Assembly: GCF_048403405.1 (NCBI RefSeq) | Contig: NZ_CP183136.1 | Length of the DNA stretch: 64,000 bases | Reading direction: 5' to 3' (one strand) | Source of the DNA: Escherichia coli | GTDB taxonomy: Bacteria; Pseudomonadota; Gammaproteobacteria; Enterobacterales; Enterobacteriaceae | In this document: in pieces, positions 32,453-41,256 of the stretch | Position numbering within the stretch: the first letter of the stretch is position 1 | Layout: every line of letters starts with the position of its first letter | Notes under the pieces: model-generated | The model's input: the letters and a program-made list of their open reading frames with translations, nothing else | Told to the model about the DNA's origin: nothing | Databases searched by the model: none | Position numbers and translations under genes: made by a program

Positions 32453-33199
32453 ATGACAACGGATAACACGAACACGACACGTAACGATTCACTGGCTGCA
32501 CGGACCGATACCTGGTTGCAGTCGTTTCTGGTCTGGTCACCCGGACAGCGGGATATCATCAAAACGGTGGCGCTGGTGCTGATGGTACTGGACCACATCA
32601 ATCTGATATTCCAGCTGAAGCAGGAATGGATGTTTCTGGCCGGGCGAGGAGCCTTTCCGCTGTTTGCCCTGGTGTGGGGGCTGAATCTGTCCCGTCATGC
32701 GCATATCCGGCAACCGGCCATTAACCGGCTGTGGGGATGGGGAATTATTGCCCAGTTCGCATATTATCTGGCCGGCTTTCCCTGGCATGAGGGGAATATC
32801 CTGTTTGCCTTTGCAGTGGCGGCACAGGTGCTGACGTGGTGTGAAACGCGCAGTGGGTGGCGTACAGCAGCGGCCATTCTTCTGATGGCCCTGTGGGGGC
32901 CTTTGTCCGGCACCAGTTACGGCATTGCCGGGCTGCTGATGCTGGCGGTCAGTTACCGACTGTACCGGGCGGAAGACAGAGCGGAACGTCTGGCGCTGCT
33001 TGCATGCCTGCTGGCCGTTATTCCGGCACTTAACCTTGCCTCCAGTGATGCAGCGGCGGTGGCCGGTCTTGTAATGACGGTGCTGACCGTTGGTCTGGTG
33101 TCGTGTGCAGGAAAATCATTACCCCGTTTCTGGCCCGGGGATTTTTTCCCGGTATTCTACGCCTGTCATCTGGCTGTGCTGGGCGTTCTGGCGTTGTGA
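32453..33199 (+). CDS. traX: TraX, F-pilin acetyltransferase
   Basis: ATG at 32453 gives a 248-aa polytopic membrane protein; conserved position after traI. Confidence 0.9.
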   Translation: MTTDNTNTTRNDSLAARTDTWLQSFLVWSPGQRDIIKTVALVLMVLDHINLIFQLKQEWMFLAGRGAFPLFALVWGLNLSRHAHIRQPAINRLWGWGIIAQFAYYLAGFPWHEGNILFAFAVAAQVLTWCETRSGWRTAAAILLMALWGPLSGTSYGIAGLLMLAVSYRLYRAEDRAERLALLACLLAVIPALNLASSDAAAVAGLVMTVLTVGLVSCAGKSLPRFWPGDFFPVFYACHLAVLGVLAL

Positions 33200-33257: not shown

Positions 33258-34118
33258 ATGAAAATTACGGATCACAAACTCTCTGAAGGTATTGCCCTGA
33301 CATTTCGTGTTCCTGAAGGAAATATAAAACATCCTTTGATTATCTTATGCCATGGGTTTTGCGGTATCAGGAATGTTCTGCTCCCTTGCTTTGCGAATGC
33401 CTTCACAGAAGCAGGATTCGCAACGATTACTTTTGATTATCGAGGATTCGGTGAGAGTGATGGAGAACGAGGGCGTCTGGTTCCTGCAATGCAGACCGAA
33501 GATATTATTTCAGTTATCAATTGGGCAGAAAAGCAGGAATGTATTGATAATCAGCGTATTGGGTTATGGGGAACATCGCTGGGAGGGGGGCATGTCTTCA
33601 GTGCAGCTGCGCAGGACCAACGCGTAAAATGTATTGTCAGCCAGCTGGCTTTTGCTGACGGTGATGTTCTGGTTACCGGAGAGATGAATGAATCGGAGAG
33701 AGCGTCTTTTCTGTCCACGCTGAATAAAATGGCAGAGAAGAAGAAAAACACCGGGAAAGAGATGTTTGTGGGGGTTACCCGGGTACTGAGTGATAATGAA
33801 TCAAAGGTATTCTTCGAGAAGGTAAAAGGTCAGTATCCTGAAATGGATATAAAAATACCTTTCCTTACGGTTATGGAGACGTTGCAATATAAACCGGCAG
33901 AGAGCGCAGCCAAAGTACAGTGCCCAGTTTTGATTGTTATTGCCGGCCAGGATAGTGTTAATCCACCAGAACAGGGAAAAGCCTTATATGATGCTGTTGC
34001 TTCTGGTACTAAGGAATTATACGAGGAAGCTGACGCATGCCATTATGATATTTATGAAGGCGCGTTTTTTGAACGTGTGGCGGCAGTACAGACGCAATGG
34101 TTTAAAAAACATCTTTAA
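33258..34118 (+). CDS. Alpha/beta-fold hydrolase
   Basis: 286-aa ORF with GTSLGG nucleophile-elbow motif; a hydrolase is common between traX and finO in IncF backbones. Confidence 0.75.
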   Translation: MKITDHKLSEGIALTFRVPEGNIKHPLIILCHGFCGIRNVLLPCFANAFTEAGFATITFDYRGFGESDGERGRLVPAMQTEDIISVINWAEKQECIDNQRIGLWGTSLGGGHVFSAAAQDQRVKCIVSQLAFADGDVLVTGEMNESERASFLSTLNKMAEKKKNTGKEMFVGVTRVLSDNESKVFFEKVKGQYPEMDIKIPFLTVMETLQYKPAESAAKVQCPVLIVIAGQDSVNPPEQGKALYDAVASGTKELYEEADACHYDIYEGAFFERVAAVQTQWFKKHL

Positions 34119-34220: not shown

Positions 34221-34781
34221 ATGACAGAGCAGAAACGACCGGTACTGACACTGAAACGGAAAACGGAAGGGGAAACACCGACCCGGAGCCGGAAAACCAT
34301 CATCAATGTCACCACGCCACCAAAATGGAAGGTGAAAAAGCAGAAACTGGCGGAGAAGGCTGCCCGGGAAGCAGAGCTGACAGCAAAAAAAGCGCAGGCC
34401 AGACAGGCGCTGTCCATTTATCTGAACCTGCCCTCGCTGGATGAGGCCGTGAACACCCTGAAACCCTGGTGGCCGGGATTATTTGACGGTGACACACCCC
34501 GACTTCTGGCCTGCGGTATCCGGGACGTGTTACTGGAAGACGTGGCGCAGCGGAATATCCCGCTCTCGCATAAAAAACTGCGCAGGGCGCTGAAGGCCAT
34601 CACCCGTTCAGAAAGCTATCTGTGTGCCATGAAAGCCGGTGCCTGCCGGTATGACACGGAAGGGTATGTGACGGAGCATATTTCTCAGGAGGAAGAAGTG
34701 TATGCGGCAGAGCGTCTGGATAAAATCCGCCGCCAGAACCGGATAAAGGCAGAACTTCAGGCCGTGCTTGATGAACAATAA
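34221..34781 (+). CDS. finO: FinO, fertility-inhibition RNA chaperone
   Basis: 186-aa basic protein matching FinO; appears intact. Confidence 0.95.
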
Positions 34782-35353
34782 AAAAGCCTCCTTCACACTA
34801 AAGGAGGCGGAAAAATAAGGCTTCTCTGAAACCTTCTTCCATACCCGGCAGAAGAAGGTTATAAAAATTTATAACACATTCACCGGCCTGGATTAAAGGG
34901 GGAAGGAAAATGAACGGAACAGGGCGTGATTCGCAAAACTCCGGGGTATGGCGCTACCGGCAGGTCGGACGCCGGGCTGTCCGGCTGGAAGTCAGGGGGA
35001 CTGGCCGGGAGCCGCTGAGGCATGGCTACGGGCTGCGCAGTCTGCTCCCCGGACAGACTGGCAGCAGTTTGCCCGAAAAAGGGCTGAACACTGCCACCGG
35101 CGCTGCCGGGGAAGGGTGTAACGAAAAAGCAGCCTTCATTACTCCAGGGATTCAGAAGGCTGAATAATGCATGAGATTTGCTTTTTTTAATATCCGGTCG
35201 GAAAGTATGACCGGACAGTTCTGAGTAGCACAGAGTTTTTTCCATATTAAGTCGTGATTTTATATTTTGTGATTAATTTCACAAAATAAGGTGTTATTCA
35301 GTGTGTGCTGCGATATTCAGGATTACCTGAAATACAGGTGCCATTTATCTGAT

Positions 35354-35827
35354 ATGGAGAATAACATGAGGAAATATATTCCACTGGTATTATTTATCTT
35401 TTCATGGCCGGTATTGTGTGCAGATATTCATGGACGGGTTGTTCGTGTACTGGACGGTGATACCATCGAGGTCATGGACTCACGGAAGGCAGTGCGGATC
35501 AGGCTGATAAATATTGATGCACCGGAAAAGAAACAGGATTATGGCCGGTGGTCAACGGACATGATGAAATCACTGGTTGCAGGAAAAACGGTTACCGTCA
35601 CATATTTTCAGCGAGATCGTTATGGTCGTATTCTCGGGCAGGTTTATGCACCAGACGGAATGAATGTTAATCAGTTTATGGTCCGGGCCGGGGCTGCCTG
35701 GGTATATGAGCAGTACAACACAGATCCCGTGCTGCCTGTCCTTCAGAACGAAGCCAGACAACAAAAACGTGGGCTCTGGTCAGATGCTGATCCGGTTCCC
35801 CCCTGGATATGGAGACACCGTAAATAA
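35354..35827 (+). CDS. Secreted thermonuclease (SNase-like) family nuclease
   Basis: Signal peptide plus RLINIDAPE motif typical of staphylococcal-nuclease homologues; start at 35354 or 35366. Confidence 0.8.
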   Translation: MENNMRKYIPLVLFIFSWPVLCADIHGRVVRVLDGDTIEVMDSRKAVRIRLINIDAPEKKQDYGRWSTDMMKSLVAGKTVTVTYFQRDRYGRILGQVYAPDGMNVNQFMVRAGAAWVYEQYNTDPVLPVLQNEARQQKRGLWSDADPVPPWIWRHRK

Positions 35828-35872: not shown

Positions 35873-36082
35873 ATGGCGAAAACAAAACAGGAATGGCTGT
35901 ATCAGTTACGGCGATGTTCATCAGTCAATACGCTGGAAAAAATTATTCATAAAAACAGAGACAGTTTATTAAACAGTGAACGTGAATCATTTAATTCAGC
36001 AGCAGACCACCGGTTAGCGGAATTAATCACCGGAAAGTTATATGACAGGATACCAAAAGAGATATGGAAATATGTAAGGTAA
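35873..36082 (+). CDS. Hypothetical small protein
   Basis: 69-aa ORF with upstream purine-rich stretch; no recognised domain. Confidence 0.45.
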   Translation: MAKTKQEWLYQLRRCSSVNTLEKIIHKNRDSLLNSERESFNSAADHRLAELITGKLYDRIPKEIWKYVR

Positions 36083-36119
36083 TAATTCAGAATAATTAAT
36101 TACCAGGAGCAGATAAACA

Positions 36120-36710
36120 ATGAAGCTGATTATTTTTATTCTCATTGTTCTGATTATTGCAGCGTTACTTATCCGGATTATCCTCAAAAGTGTAAATCAG
36201 CATTCTCCTTTGCTGATGCAGTTGCATGCGGCAGGTATACGGACCGGTGATGCAGAGCGAATACTGTCCGGCGGTGAATACTGGCAACGTCAGAAGACGC
36301 TGCTGACAGAAAGGGAAGTCAGTTTTATGAAAGGACTGTTCAGAATTGTGGATATGAAGCGGTGGTATCTGTGTCCGCAGGTACGGGTCGCGGATATCGT
36401 CCAGCTGAACGGGAATATCCGGCCACGATCACGCCAGTGGTGGCAGTTATTCAGGATGGTGTCTCAGTGGCATGTTGATGTGGTTATCGTTGAGCGGCGT
36501 TCGTTCAGTATTGTTGCAGCAGTAGAGCTGGATGATGCCAGCCATTTACGACCGGAACGCAGACGCCGGGATATTCTTCTGGAAGAGGTTCTGAGGCAGG
36601 CTGGTATTCCGTTGCTCAGAAGCCACGATGCCAGAAAACTGCTGCAGATGACCGGAGAATGGCTGAATACAACAGGAACTGATCAGCAATCACCGGAACA
36701 TCGTAGCTGA
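36120..36710 (+). CDS. Membrane-anchored hypothetical protein, possibly DUF2726 / nuclease-fold-like
   Basis: N-terminal TM helix; C-terminal region with D..E-type acidic motifs (VDVVIVERR); family assignment from recall only. Confidence 0.55.
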   Translation: MKLIIFILIVLIIAALLIRIILKSVNQHSPLLMQLHAAGIRTGDAERILSGGEYWQRQKTLLTEREVSFMKGLFRIVDMKRWYLCPQVRVADIVQLNGNIRPRSRQWWQLFRMVSQWHVDVVIVERRSFSIVAAVELDDASHLRPERRRRDILLEEVLRQAGIPLLRSHDARKLLQMTGEWLNTTGTDQQSPEHRS

Positions 36711-36949
36711 CGCCTTCGCGTTGCTCAGTTGTCCAACCCCGGAAACGGGAAAAAGCAAGTTTTCCCCGCTCCCGGCGTTTCCATAACTGAAAACCATACT
36801 ATTTCACAGTTTAAATCACATTAAACGACAGTAATCCCCGTTGATTTGTGCGCCAACACAGATCTTCGTCACAATTCTCAAGTCGCTGATTTCAAAAAAC
36901 TGTAGTATCCTCTGCGAAACGATCCCTGTTTGAGTATTGAGGAGGCGAG

Positions 36950-37207
36950 ATGTCGCAGACAGAAAATGCAGTGACTTCCTCATCTGGCGCAAAACGAGCA
37001 TACAGAAAGGGTAAACCTTTGAGTGAAGCAGAACGACAGAGAGCAGCTTCTGCGCGCAAACGATCTGTATGTAAAGAGATCAAGGTTTTCGTCAGACCAG
37101 AACTGAAAAACTACCTTACCAGTCTGTGTGCAGAGGAAGGGGTAACTCAGGCAGAGTTGATAGAAAGGCTTATCGAGAAAGAGGCCTGTCACAGGAACAT
37201 GATGTGA
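36950..37207 (+). CDS. copB: CopB (RepA2), transcriptional repressor of repA1
   Basis: 85-aa ORF starting MSQTENAVTSSSGAKRAYRKG..., characteristic of the IncFII replicon. Confidence 0.9.
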   Translation: MSQTENAVTSSSGAKRAYRKGKPLSEAERQRAASARKRSVCKEIKVFVRPELKNYLTSLCAEEGVTQAELIERLIEKEACHRNMM

Positions 37208-37269: not shown

Positions 37270-37390
37270 TGTGGCTGGCCACGCCGTAAGGTGGCAGGGA
37301 ACTGGTTCTGATGTGGATTTACAGGAGCCAGAAAAGTGAAAACCCCGATAATCTTCAGCAAGTTTGGCGACTAAGAAGAAGATTAACGGG
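37270..37390 (-). ncRNA. copA: CopA antisense RNA region (approximate)
   Basis: Position between copB and tap on the opposite strand as in R1/R100; ends not determined. Confidence 0.35.
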
Positions 37391-37442
37391 GCTAACAAGA
37401 AACCGCATAGAAGCTGTTGCTCTATGCGGGGAGTATAGTTAT

Positions 37443-37517
37443 ATGCCCGGAAAAGTTCAAGACTTCTTTCTGTGCTCACTCCTTCTGTGCAACATAAGTG
37501 CAGGATGGTGTGACTGA
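37443..37517 (+). CDS. tap: Tap (RepA6) leader peptide, translationally coupled to repA1
   Basis: 24-codon [27 protein letters not shown] whose stop overlaps the repA1 GTG start. Confidence 0.7.
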
Positions 37518-38367
37518 TCTTCACCAAACGTATTACCGCCAGGTAAAGAACCCGAATCCGGTGTTTACACCCCGTAAAGGTGCCGGAACGCTGAAGTTCT
37601 GCGAAAAACTGATGGAAAAGGCGGTGGGCTTCACCTCCCGTTTTGACTTCGCCATTCATGTGGCGCATGCCCGTTCGCGTGGTCTGCGTCGACGCATGCC
37701 ACCGGTGCTGCGTCGACGGGCAATTGATGCGCTGCTGCAGGGGCTGTGTTTCCACTATGACCCGCTGGCCAACCGCGTCCAGTGCTCCATCACCACACTG
37801 GCCATTGAGTGCGGACTGGCGACAGAGTCCGGTGCAGGAAAACTCTCCATCACCCGTGCCACCCGGGCCCTGACGTTCCTGTCAGAGCTGGGACTGATTA
37901 CCTACCAGACGGAATATGACCCGCTTATCGGGTGCTACATTCCGACCGACATCACGTTCACACCGGCACTGTTTGCCGCTCTCGATGTGTCTGAGGTGGC
38001 GGTGGCTTCCGCACGCCGCAGTCGTGTGGAATGGGAAAACAGACAGCGCAAGAAGCAGGGACTGGATGCACTGGGCATGGATGAACTGATAGCGAAAGCC
38101 TGGCGTTTTGTTCGTGAGCGTTTTCGCAGTTATCAGACAGAGCTTAAGTCCCGGGGAATAAAGCGTGCCCGTGCGCGTCGTGATGCGGACAGGGAACGTC
38201 AGGATATTGTCACCCTGGTGAAACGGCAGCTGACGCGCGAAATCGCGGAAGGGCGCTTCACTGCCAATCGTGAGGCGGTAAAACGCGAAGTTGAGCGTCG
38301 TGTGAAGGAGCGCATGATTCTGTCACGTAACCGTAATTACAGCCGGCTGGCCACAGCTTCCCCCTGA
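37510..38367 (+). CDS. repA1: RepA1, IncFII replication initiator
   Basis: GTG at 37510 gives [19 protein letters not shown]..., matching IncFII RepA1 along its length. Confidence 0.95.
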
Positions 38368-40687: not shown

Positions 40688-41256
40688 TGTCTGTAGCCCT
40701 CCTTATCGTGATCAGGATGATGGTTTTCATTCTAATGGTGTAGTAGTTTCACGTCACGCGCACGTGCATATTCTTCGAAAGCTTCGGCGTTAGCCGGTCA
40801 ACCAGGGGGTTGAGGCCCAACCGTACGAGATCGTACGCTAAGTTCATTTTTTGAGCAGAAGAGGTGAGTAAAGAAAACGAGGGTTTTGTTTACTCTTCCC
40901 GTCAATGCCAGTAGCCATGCGGTTTCAGGGACTTTCAGTGTTAATAAACTCGGTAATCAAATCAACGTAAACCTGCCTAACAACGCCACGACTTTATTGA
41001 CTTAAAATCATATAGTTAGCTTCTTAGCGTACGTTTCCGCTCCATTGGGCTTCAAACCCCACACCCAATGACATGAGAAAAGCTGGATCTGATTCTCAAA
41101 ATGCTGGGATACCCATCGAGATGGAGAACTCAGTCAATGTTCCATTCTTTCTGAAATATGTGTGGGGACACTGATCTGTCGGGAGCCGGATGCGGTAGTT
41201 CCGCAGGTCCGGTTCTGAGGAGGGGCCCGTCCGGGCAACCGGCGGGTCTACTCACC

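Follow-up and report, generated by a model that had tools for sequence, protein, structure and literature searches.

YihA of R100-type IncFII plasmids is predicted to be a membrane-tethered, nuclease-fold accessory protein with relatives in uncultivated inoviruses

INTRODUCTION

What does a small protein with a membrane anchor and a nuclease-like domain do on an IncF plasmid, and does its gene belong to the replicon beside which it lies? The question is raised by yihA, an ORF in the 64,000-nucleotide stretch of Escherichia coli DNA that we analyzed as a whole (contig NZ_CP183136.1; here called the window). In Enterobacterales, ESBL and carbapenemase genes travel mainly on IncF plasmids, and yihA is part of the conserved IncF backbone: the plasmids of 55% of complete E. 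coli genomes match it. Its product falls in the DUF2726 family, which has been placed beside Vsr and DUF559 in the PD-(D/E)XK superfamily as a family of unknown function (Steczkiewicz et al., PMC3424549). DUF2726 has also been described as a DNase domain of the REase fold that is fused in some proteins to AbiJ N-terminal domains (Anantharaman et al., PMC3710099), and the AbiJ-DUF2726 fusion proteins have a presumed defence role (PMC3710099). We found no functional study of any DUF2726 protein in the literature naming DUF2726, PF10881, or plasmid yihA. The plasmid gene shares its name with the chromosomal YihA/EngB GTPase, and at least one study took the plasmid gene for that cell-division GTPase (PMC4794485). 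A gene labelled yihA on the IncFIIK plasmid pBIC1a, linked to the gene studied here by that name, showed low expression in RNA-seq, with 13 in the expression column (PMC6286996).

RESULTS

yihA is an annotated gene of R100-type IncFII plasmids

The surroundings of yihA in the window are those of an R100-type IncFII conjugative plasmid (Table 1). R100 has the same gene order, namely, traX, alpha/beta hydrolase gene, finO, ANR gene, thermonuclease gene, hha, yihA, and repA2, and its CDS at 87423-88013 has 98.9% amino acid identity to YihA over residues 23 to 196, the two proteins differing by few substitutions, e.g., K23R. yihA is a known, annotated gene of R100-type IncFII plasmids. The plasmid record H20 (PLSDB) labels it "yihA," apparently a kilobase-based y-name from R100, and RefSeq calls its product "DUF2726 domain-containing protein." An earlier note on this DNA had placed the ORF next to the replicon, and in terms of distance this is correct.

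Table 1. Positions in the window of yihA, its parts, and the features around it
Feature	Position	Strand	Description
traX	end at 33199	+	Distal tra operon
Alpha/beta hydrolase gene	33258-34118	+	
finO	34221-34781	+	
Promoter-like site	35239-35266		Before thermonuclease gene
SNase-type thermonuclease gene	35366-35827	+	Pfam SNase, E 1e-30; signal-peptide-like N-terminus MRKYIPLVLFIFSWPVLCA
hha (H-NS co-modulator)	35873-36082	+	Pfam HHA, E 4e-23; 37 bp upstream of yihA
Shine-Dalgarno-like AGGAG	36105-36109	+	10 nt before yihA ATG, read from sequence
yihA CDS	36120-36710	+	196 aa plus stop; N-terminal membrane anchor, then DUF2726 nuclease-fold domain
Predicted membrane helix (residues 3-22)	36126-36185	+	LIIFILIVLIIAALLIRIIL; from hydropathy, AlphaFold2, and charge bias in relatives
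DUF2726 domain (residues 59-170)	36294-36629	+	Predicted Vsr/DUF559-type PD-(D/E)XK fold
Active-site-type motif	36471-36545	+	H118-x-D120 ... E136-L-D138-D139-x-S-H142; E66, R89, D92, R147, R150, and D151, beyond this segment, are conserved too
GC-rich stem-loop	36725-36790	+	No T-run; between yihA stop and copB promoter region
repA2/copB	36950-37207	+	240 bp downstream of yihA
CopA antisense RNA	37334-37425	-	
repA1	37498-38367	+	

Both the ORF listing and the sequence give ATG as the start of yihA, and no Rfam family or credible opposite-strand gene overlaps the ORF. The product of the gene before it was recognized by the NCBIfam Hha model (95.7 bits against a cut-off of 90). Since a promoter-like site precedes the thermonuclease gene and the intergenic gaps measure 45 and 37 bp, nuc, hha, and yihA probably form a single transcription unit in which the thermonuclease gene comes first. 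Downstream, the RNA of positions 36700 to 36800 folds at -30.9 kcal/mol (z = -3.5 against 200 shuffles). The stem-loop in this segment was not called by the terminator scan, as it lacks a T-run; it may act as a transcription barrier or a processing site ahead of the copB promoter. There is no adjacent methyltransferase gene of the kind expected for type II restriction-modification, the neighbors of yihA being hha and repA2.

The ANR family transcriptional regulator ORF that occupies the finO-nuclease gap in R100 is frameshifted in the window (34910-35118, + strand), with residues 1 to 30 and 29 to 70 matching in separate frames. It is overlapped by the Rfam antisense RNA AS-pc02 (35018-35201, - strand; 229 bits).

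yihA is widespread on conjugative plasmids and under apparent purifying selection

Matches to yihA were found on at least 5,000 PLSDB plasmids, mostly conjugative ones, whose hosts are mostly Escherichia, Klebsiella, Shigella, and Salmonella. Among complete E. coli genomes, 3,005 of 5,426 carry a match, which covers at least 80% of the gene in 1,805 of them, and nearly all of the matching places (3,453 of 3,474) are on plasmids. Copies are often truncated or fused to insertion sequences (IS), and that of plasmid pH1519-76 is interrupted by a 256-bp miniature element (MITE). The intact form nevertheless dominates, with 4,725 members in the full-length cluster versus a few hundred truncated ones.

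A 256-bp element 99% identical to the one inside yihA of pH1519-76 is present elsewhere in the window, at 40805-41060. It has terminal inverted repeats of ~38 bp of the Tn3-family type (GGGG...TAAG). The pH1519-76 copy (NC_025177.1, about positions 2014 to 2269 of the retrieved locus L003) is flanked by a 5-bp duplication, AGAAA; a clean duplication is absent in the window, where the left flank reads AACCA and the right flank ACACC. E. coli yihA copies with 98 to 99% identity were also seen on contigs of 2 to 4.6 kb (L098, L099, and L101) filed under Acinetobacter idrijaensis and two Lachnospiraceae metagenome-assembled genomes. These are probably contamination or mis-binning and not part of the true host range.

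An exhaustive HMMER search returned relatives of YihA in 4,583 clusters (50% identity) at E <= 0.001. Compared with homologues from IncFIIK plasmids and from Serratia, Hafnia, Raoultella, Enterobacter, and Salmonella (the values of two further loci, L107 and L108, being left out because they had been read in the wrong frame), yihA has diverged with pN of 0.31 to 0.40 and pS of 0.68 to 0.90. That pN is far below pS indicates purifying selection, at a dS that is saturated. Given the number of relative clusters, this excess of silent change, and the CDS annotated in R100 and in thousands of plasmids, the ORF is evidently not a chance reading frame.

The DUF2726 domain has a predicted nuclease fold

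The earlier note had suggested that the C-terminal region resembles a DUF2726 or restriction-endonuclease-like fold, and the family assignment is firm: Pfam DUF2726 (PF10881) matches YihA at 77.1 bits against a gathering threshold of 24.7 (E = 1.3e-21, positions 2 to 110 of the 126 in the profile). The match of REase_MTES_1575 is below threshold (23 bits versus a cut-off of 38). Apart from DUF2726 and this weak second match, Pfam yielded neither DUF4041 nor GIY-YIG domains in YihA. No NCBIfam model and no RmuC domain model matched the protein, no family of the PADLOC-DB 2.0 defence-protein models did so at E <= 1, and the one PHROGs match, a weak one, was to a family without an assigned function. 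Across 69 diverse DUF2726 members that we aligned, E66, V88, R89, D92, and D120 are invariant, and F111, H118, E136, D138, D139, H142, R147, R150, and D151 are at least 90% conserved. YihA carries E66, R89, D92, H118, D120, E136, D138, D139, H142, R147, R150, and D151. The two acidic motifs that had been singled out as nuclease-like, VDVVIVERR and ELDD, lie at residues 119 to 127 and 136 to 139 and hold conserved active-site-type residues of the family.

An AlphaFold2 model of YihA built on the 69-member alignment (mean pLDDT, 94.2; pTM, 0.79) has a single continuous helix from residue 2 to residue 28. A linker with two short helices leads from it into an alpha/beta core, whose strands span residues 82-89, 118-125, 131-137, and 165-168 and whose helices span residues 64-76, 105-115, and 145-160. 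The predicted core is of the restriction-endonuclease-like type. Its second and third strands bear acidic residues that are candidates for the metal-binding ones of PD-(D/E)XK enzymes, D120 beginning strand 118-125 and E136 and D138 ending strand 131-137. Because D120 and E136-x-D138 would thus stand on adjacent core strands, as at a metal site, YihA is likely to be catalytically competent. The canonical lysine is replaced in YihA, as it is in the DUF559-type motif E-x-D-G-x-x-H. Structure prediction and fold comparison had been proposed as a check on the nuclease reading, and AlphaFold2 and Foldseek both point to a nuclease fold. Lower-placed matches in the fold comparison were VRR-NUC proteins, type II restriction enzymes, TnsA, and Hjc, and Foldseek against viral models returned DUF2726 proteins, a Vsr-type homing endonuclease, and VRR-NUC proteins. 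When the sequences of solved structures were searched with YihA and with the 69-sequence profile, only chance matches appeared. An hhalign comparison of the DUF2726 profile with E. coli Vsr was not significant, and the aligned part was limited to the C-terminal R-x-x-R-D ... G motif. The proposed relationship of YihA to Vsr therefore rests on modeled structure and not on sequence.

The nuclease domain is predicted to face the cytoplasm

The single N-terminal transmembrane helix reported for this 196-aa ORF was recovered here: residues L3 to L22 have a Kyte-Doolittle mean of 3.45 over 19 residues, and they lie within the first helix of the AlphaFold2 model. YihA taken alone is ambiguous as to orientation, K2 preceding the helix and R19 and K23 following it. 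We therefore turned to distant relatives of 150 to 235 aa, of which 51 of 63 have an N-terminal hydrophobic segment. In these 51 proteins, the mean K+R count is 0.14 for the 15 residues preceding the helix and 3.88 for the 15 residues following it, and the count is higher after the helix in 50 and lower in none. By the positive-inside rule as it applies across these relatives, the N-terminus of YihA is predicted to be outside and the nuclease domain to be cytoplasmic, at the inner face of the inner membrane. The predicted layout (a single N-terminal helix, the N-terminus out, and a cytoplasmic nuclease domain) is of the type known from SNIPE.

yihA accompanies the distal tra region of F-like plasmids

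IncFIIK plasmids have two hypothetical genes between finO and the DUF2726 gene; downstream of the latter come one hypothetical gene, a gene for a PLD-family nuclease, and then repA2. In a Serratia F-like plasmid, the DUF2726 gene directly follows traI, and an IS element and traX stand before repA2. Across IncFII, IncFIIK, and Serratia F-like plasmids, it always adjoins traI, traX, or finO and lies on the tra strand. These IncFIIK and Serratia gene orders tie the DUF2726 gene of F-like plasmids to the distal end of the tra operon and not to the replicon. Nor is yihA a required part of the IncFII replicon (repA2-copA-tap-repA1), as the RepFIC repA2 region of F does without it. In classic F, the stretches from traD to traX and from finO to repA2 contain no DUF2726 homologue. 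Since these are the stretches in which other F-like plasmids carry the gene, yihA appears to be dispensable for F-type transfer and replication. DUF2726 genes are also carried in IncX4 and IncI2 backbones (PMC12915395).

The distal tra region with the DUF2726 gene also holds a gene for a secreted-type nuclease, which is an SNase in IncFII/R100 and a PLD protein in IncFIIK (locus L001, 5051-5530). As a general rule, a secreted nuclease as an obligatory partner of YihA was ruled out, because the inovirus loci described below have neither SNase nor PLD.

DUF2726 genes are frequent accessory genes of uncultivated inoviruses

Two relatives of ~38% identity, P0172 and P0183, are encoded directly beside integrated inoviruses in enterobacterial chromosomes (loci L006 and L014). 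The two prophages occupy different chromosomal sites, and their genes include those for Zot, a pVIII-type coat protein, G7P, G5P, Rep_trans, and a secretin. A scan of IMG/VR confirmed 116 DUF2726 relatives, and the best 80 of these 116 (L018 to L097) are mostly on contigs of 4 to 16 kb. An iteratively built Zot profile matched at 67 of these 80 viral loci. Pfam Zot confirmed 64 of 69 candidates, made up of 62 viral loci and the two prophage seeds, so that Zot is encoded together with a DUF2726 relative on 62 of the 80 viral contigs that have the best relatives. Three contigs of 4.6 to 11 kb (L022, L042, and L074), on which both Zot and DUF2726 exceed the Pfam thresholds, are terminally redundant, which suggests that they are complete circular genomes. 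The phage copies resemble YihA in size and architecture, with a hydrophobic segment before the domain in 60 of 83. The inovirus set consists of uncultivated IMG/VR contigs or prophage-derived sequences, and records of cultured phages gave no match to YihA or P0172. A protein made of a membrane helix and a DUF2726 domain is a frequent accessory gene product of uncultivated inoviruses, which is a new observation: the link is absent from literature naming DUF2726, and the main text of a large inovirus survey does not mention such a nuclease (PMC6813254).

Chromosomal relatives have no obligatory partner

A pattern-limited scan with one genome per species confirmed 315 DUF2726 relatives in many phyla and classes, including Gammaproteobacteria, Planctomycetota, Verrucomicrobiota, Bacillota, Nitrospirota, and Chloroflexota. 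A Zot gene occurs within 10 kb at only 1 or 2 of 80 chromosomal loci examined, so inovirus carriage does not account for the whole family. Most chromosomal relatives thus lack an adjacent Zot gene, and many have ordinary contexts, so that a housekeeping role is possible. At the 65 non-enterobacterial genome loci with a called DUF2726 ORF, the 150 nearest neighbors (two per side) represent 137 Pfam families, each seen at most three times, and include neither a recurrent methyltransferase nor a conserved partner gene. The DUF2726 gene stands alone. About 10 of the 150 neighbors are of defence type, and the scattered neighbors include Mrr, reverse transcriptases, integrases, PLD proteins, and an EcoRI-type methylase; the association of chromosomal relatives with defence islands is weak.

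DISCUSSION

It is very probable that YihA is a membrane-tethered, cytoplasm-facing accessory protein with a nuclease fold. We propose that it would be a bitopic inner-membrane protein with a very short periplasmic N-terminus, one helix, and a cytoplasmic PD-(D/E)XK domain and that it would cut DNA during entry across the inner membrane, the targets being competing plasmids and phages, including pilus-dependent filamentous phages. Tethering would hold the enzyme off the chromosome and the resident plasmid. Taken whole, this account of a tethered nuclease that cuts entering DNA, encoded by an accessory gene of F-like plasmids, is our best explanation, although we give it somewhat less than an even chance of being right. 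Its functional core, namely, action on incoming DNA as exclusion or defence, is offered a shade more tentatively; we infer the activity and the substrate as well as this purpose. Exclusion or defence is favored because the gene is dispensable, is carried by competing mobile elements, has no partner, and has relatives fused to Abi domains and because SNIPE provides a precedent. A defence role is weakened by the lack of a PADLOC match, by the few defence neighbors, by the ordinary contexts of many chromosomal copies, which would also suit a housekeeping role, and by the lack of an apparent sensor or DNA-binding domain in YihA. The low expression of the gene labelled yihA on pBIC1a and the uncultivated origin of the inovirus contigs count against it as well. 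In addition, filamentous phage f1 reportedly plates on hosts of derepressed R100-1, and this speaks against a strong exclusion of Ff phages.

F-like plasmids and inoviruses both deliver single-stranded DNA across the inner membrane, and both carry a DUF2726 gene. A more general form of the proposal is a minimal "entry nuclease," encoded by a single gene for ~170 to 200 aa in F-like plasmids and inoviruses, that would distinguish self from non-self by location only. In inoviruses it would serve superinfection exclusion, and in F-like plasmids it would protect piliated hosts or exclude rival plasmids; YihA would then correspond to SNIPE at a much smaller size and with a PD-(D/E)XK domain. In this general form we regard the idea as doubtful.

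The traffic of single-stranded DNA might also be read the other way, with YihA processing the DNA of its own element by trimming or resolving the conjugated strand or, in inoviruses, the rolling-circle product during extrusion. That the gene lies at the distal tra end, shares the strand of the tra genes, and immediately follows traI in the Serratia plasmid would suit such a role, as would the relatives in inoviruses, which likewise move single-stranded DNA through the inner membrane. However, classic F transfers efficiently without yihA, many natural copies of the gene are truncated or interrupted, records of cultured phages hold no match to YihA or P0172, and most chromosomal relatives have neither an adjacent Zot gene nor a conserved partner. 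We therefore consider handling of the element's own DNA improbable.

It is also improbable that YihA is a latent toxin or abortive-infection effector, made harmless by sequestration at the membrane, that phage infection, plasmid loss, or envelope damage would free or activate to degrade the cell's own DNA. Removal of the membrane helix makes SNIPE highly toxic, an effect of its nuclease activity, other proteins join DUF2726 to AbiJ N-terminal domains, and yihA has no antitoxin-like or methyltransferase partner, all of which would fit this idea. Against it, we found no protease site, sensor domain, or partner gene through which release might be controlled, although the data do not separate such a toxin from a direct attack on incoming DNA.

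Could the hydrophobic segment instead act as a reversed signal anchor, so that the domain is periplasmic and works with the secreted SNase on periplasmic DNA, in the manner of EndA and NucA, the membrane-anchored nucleases of competent Gram-positive bacteria? The YihA N-terminus, M-K followed by at least 16 hydrophobic residues, is indeed signal-peptide-like, and F-like plasmids pair the gene with secreted nucleases of two unrelated types, SNase and PLD. This arrangement is nevertheless very unlikely given the K+R excess after the helix in 50 of 51 relatives, many of which have uncharged or acidic N-terminal extensions, the absence of an A-x-A-type cleavage region after the hydrophobic stretch of YihA, and the inovirus copies that lack a secreted-nuclease partner. 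Just as unlikely is a role other than that of a nuclease, for instance in plasmid positioning or regulation near the replicon, with YihA as a membrane tether or DNA-binding factor, because the acidic and histidine residues are invariant or nearly so across over 60 diverse members, a pattern that usually marks catalysis, and because yihA is linked to the tra end and F replicons work without it.

If YihA does cut incoming DNA, as we favor, it would help to decide which plasmids and phages become established in cells carrying IncF plasmids, and the recently described spatial discrimination of self from non-self would extend to a protein that is far smaller and occurs far more widely. If no such phenotype exists, yihA would be one of many dispensable backbone ORFs. 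The inovirus connection and the SNIPE paradigm make the gene a cheap and timely experimental target. New here are the topology predicted by the positive-inside rule, the association with inoviruses, the partnerless chromosomal relatives, and the absence of the gene between finO and repA2 of F.

YihA belongs to no catalogued defence system. Shield, a phage defence system of Pseudomonas reported by Macdonald et al. in 2023, has as its effector ShdA, a membrane helix joined to an RmuC-domain nuclease. ShdA is like YihA in being membrane anchored and in falling within the restriction-endonuclease-like superfamily, but its domain is RmuC and not DUF2726. Within the branch formed by Vsr, DUF559, and I-Bth0305I (PDB entries 1cw0, 3hrl, and 3r3p), to which YihA has sequence similarity below threshold, Vsr works in mismatch repair as a soluble enzyme and is paired with Dcm, whereas YihA is predicted to be membrane anchored and has no such partner; the intron homing enzyme I-Bth0305I has a DNA-binding domain, in place of which YihA has its membrane anchor. 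The likeness of YihA to SNIPE, a membrane-bound nuclease that cleaves phage DNA during injection and whose membrane anchor has been shown to prevent damage to host DNA (bioRxiv 10.1101/2025.11.03.685801), would be confined to topology. YihA is not a homologue of SNIPE or a member of its family: SNIPE combines a GIY-YIG nuclease with DUF4041, a DNA-binding domain that it requires, whereas YihA is a protein of ~196 aa with a predicted PD-(D/E)XK domain. Experiments have shown the activity of SNIPE as well as its interaction with ManYZ and with the tape-measure protein of the phage, whereas the properties given here for YihA are predictions from sequence and a model. What the two proteins share, on the YihA side by prediction, is an N-terminus outside, one helix, and a cytoplasmic nuclease, all encoded by a single gene.
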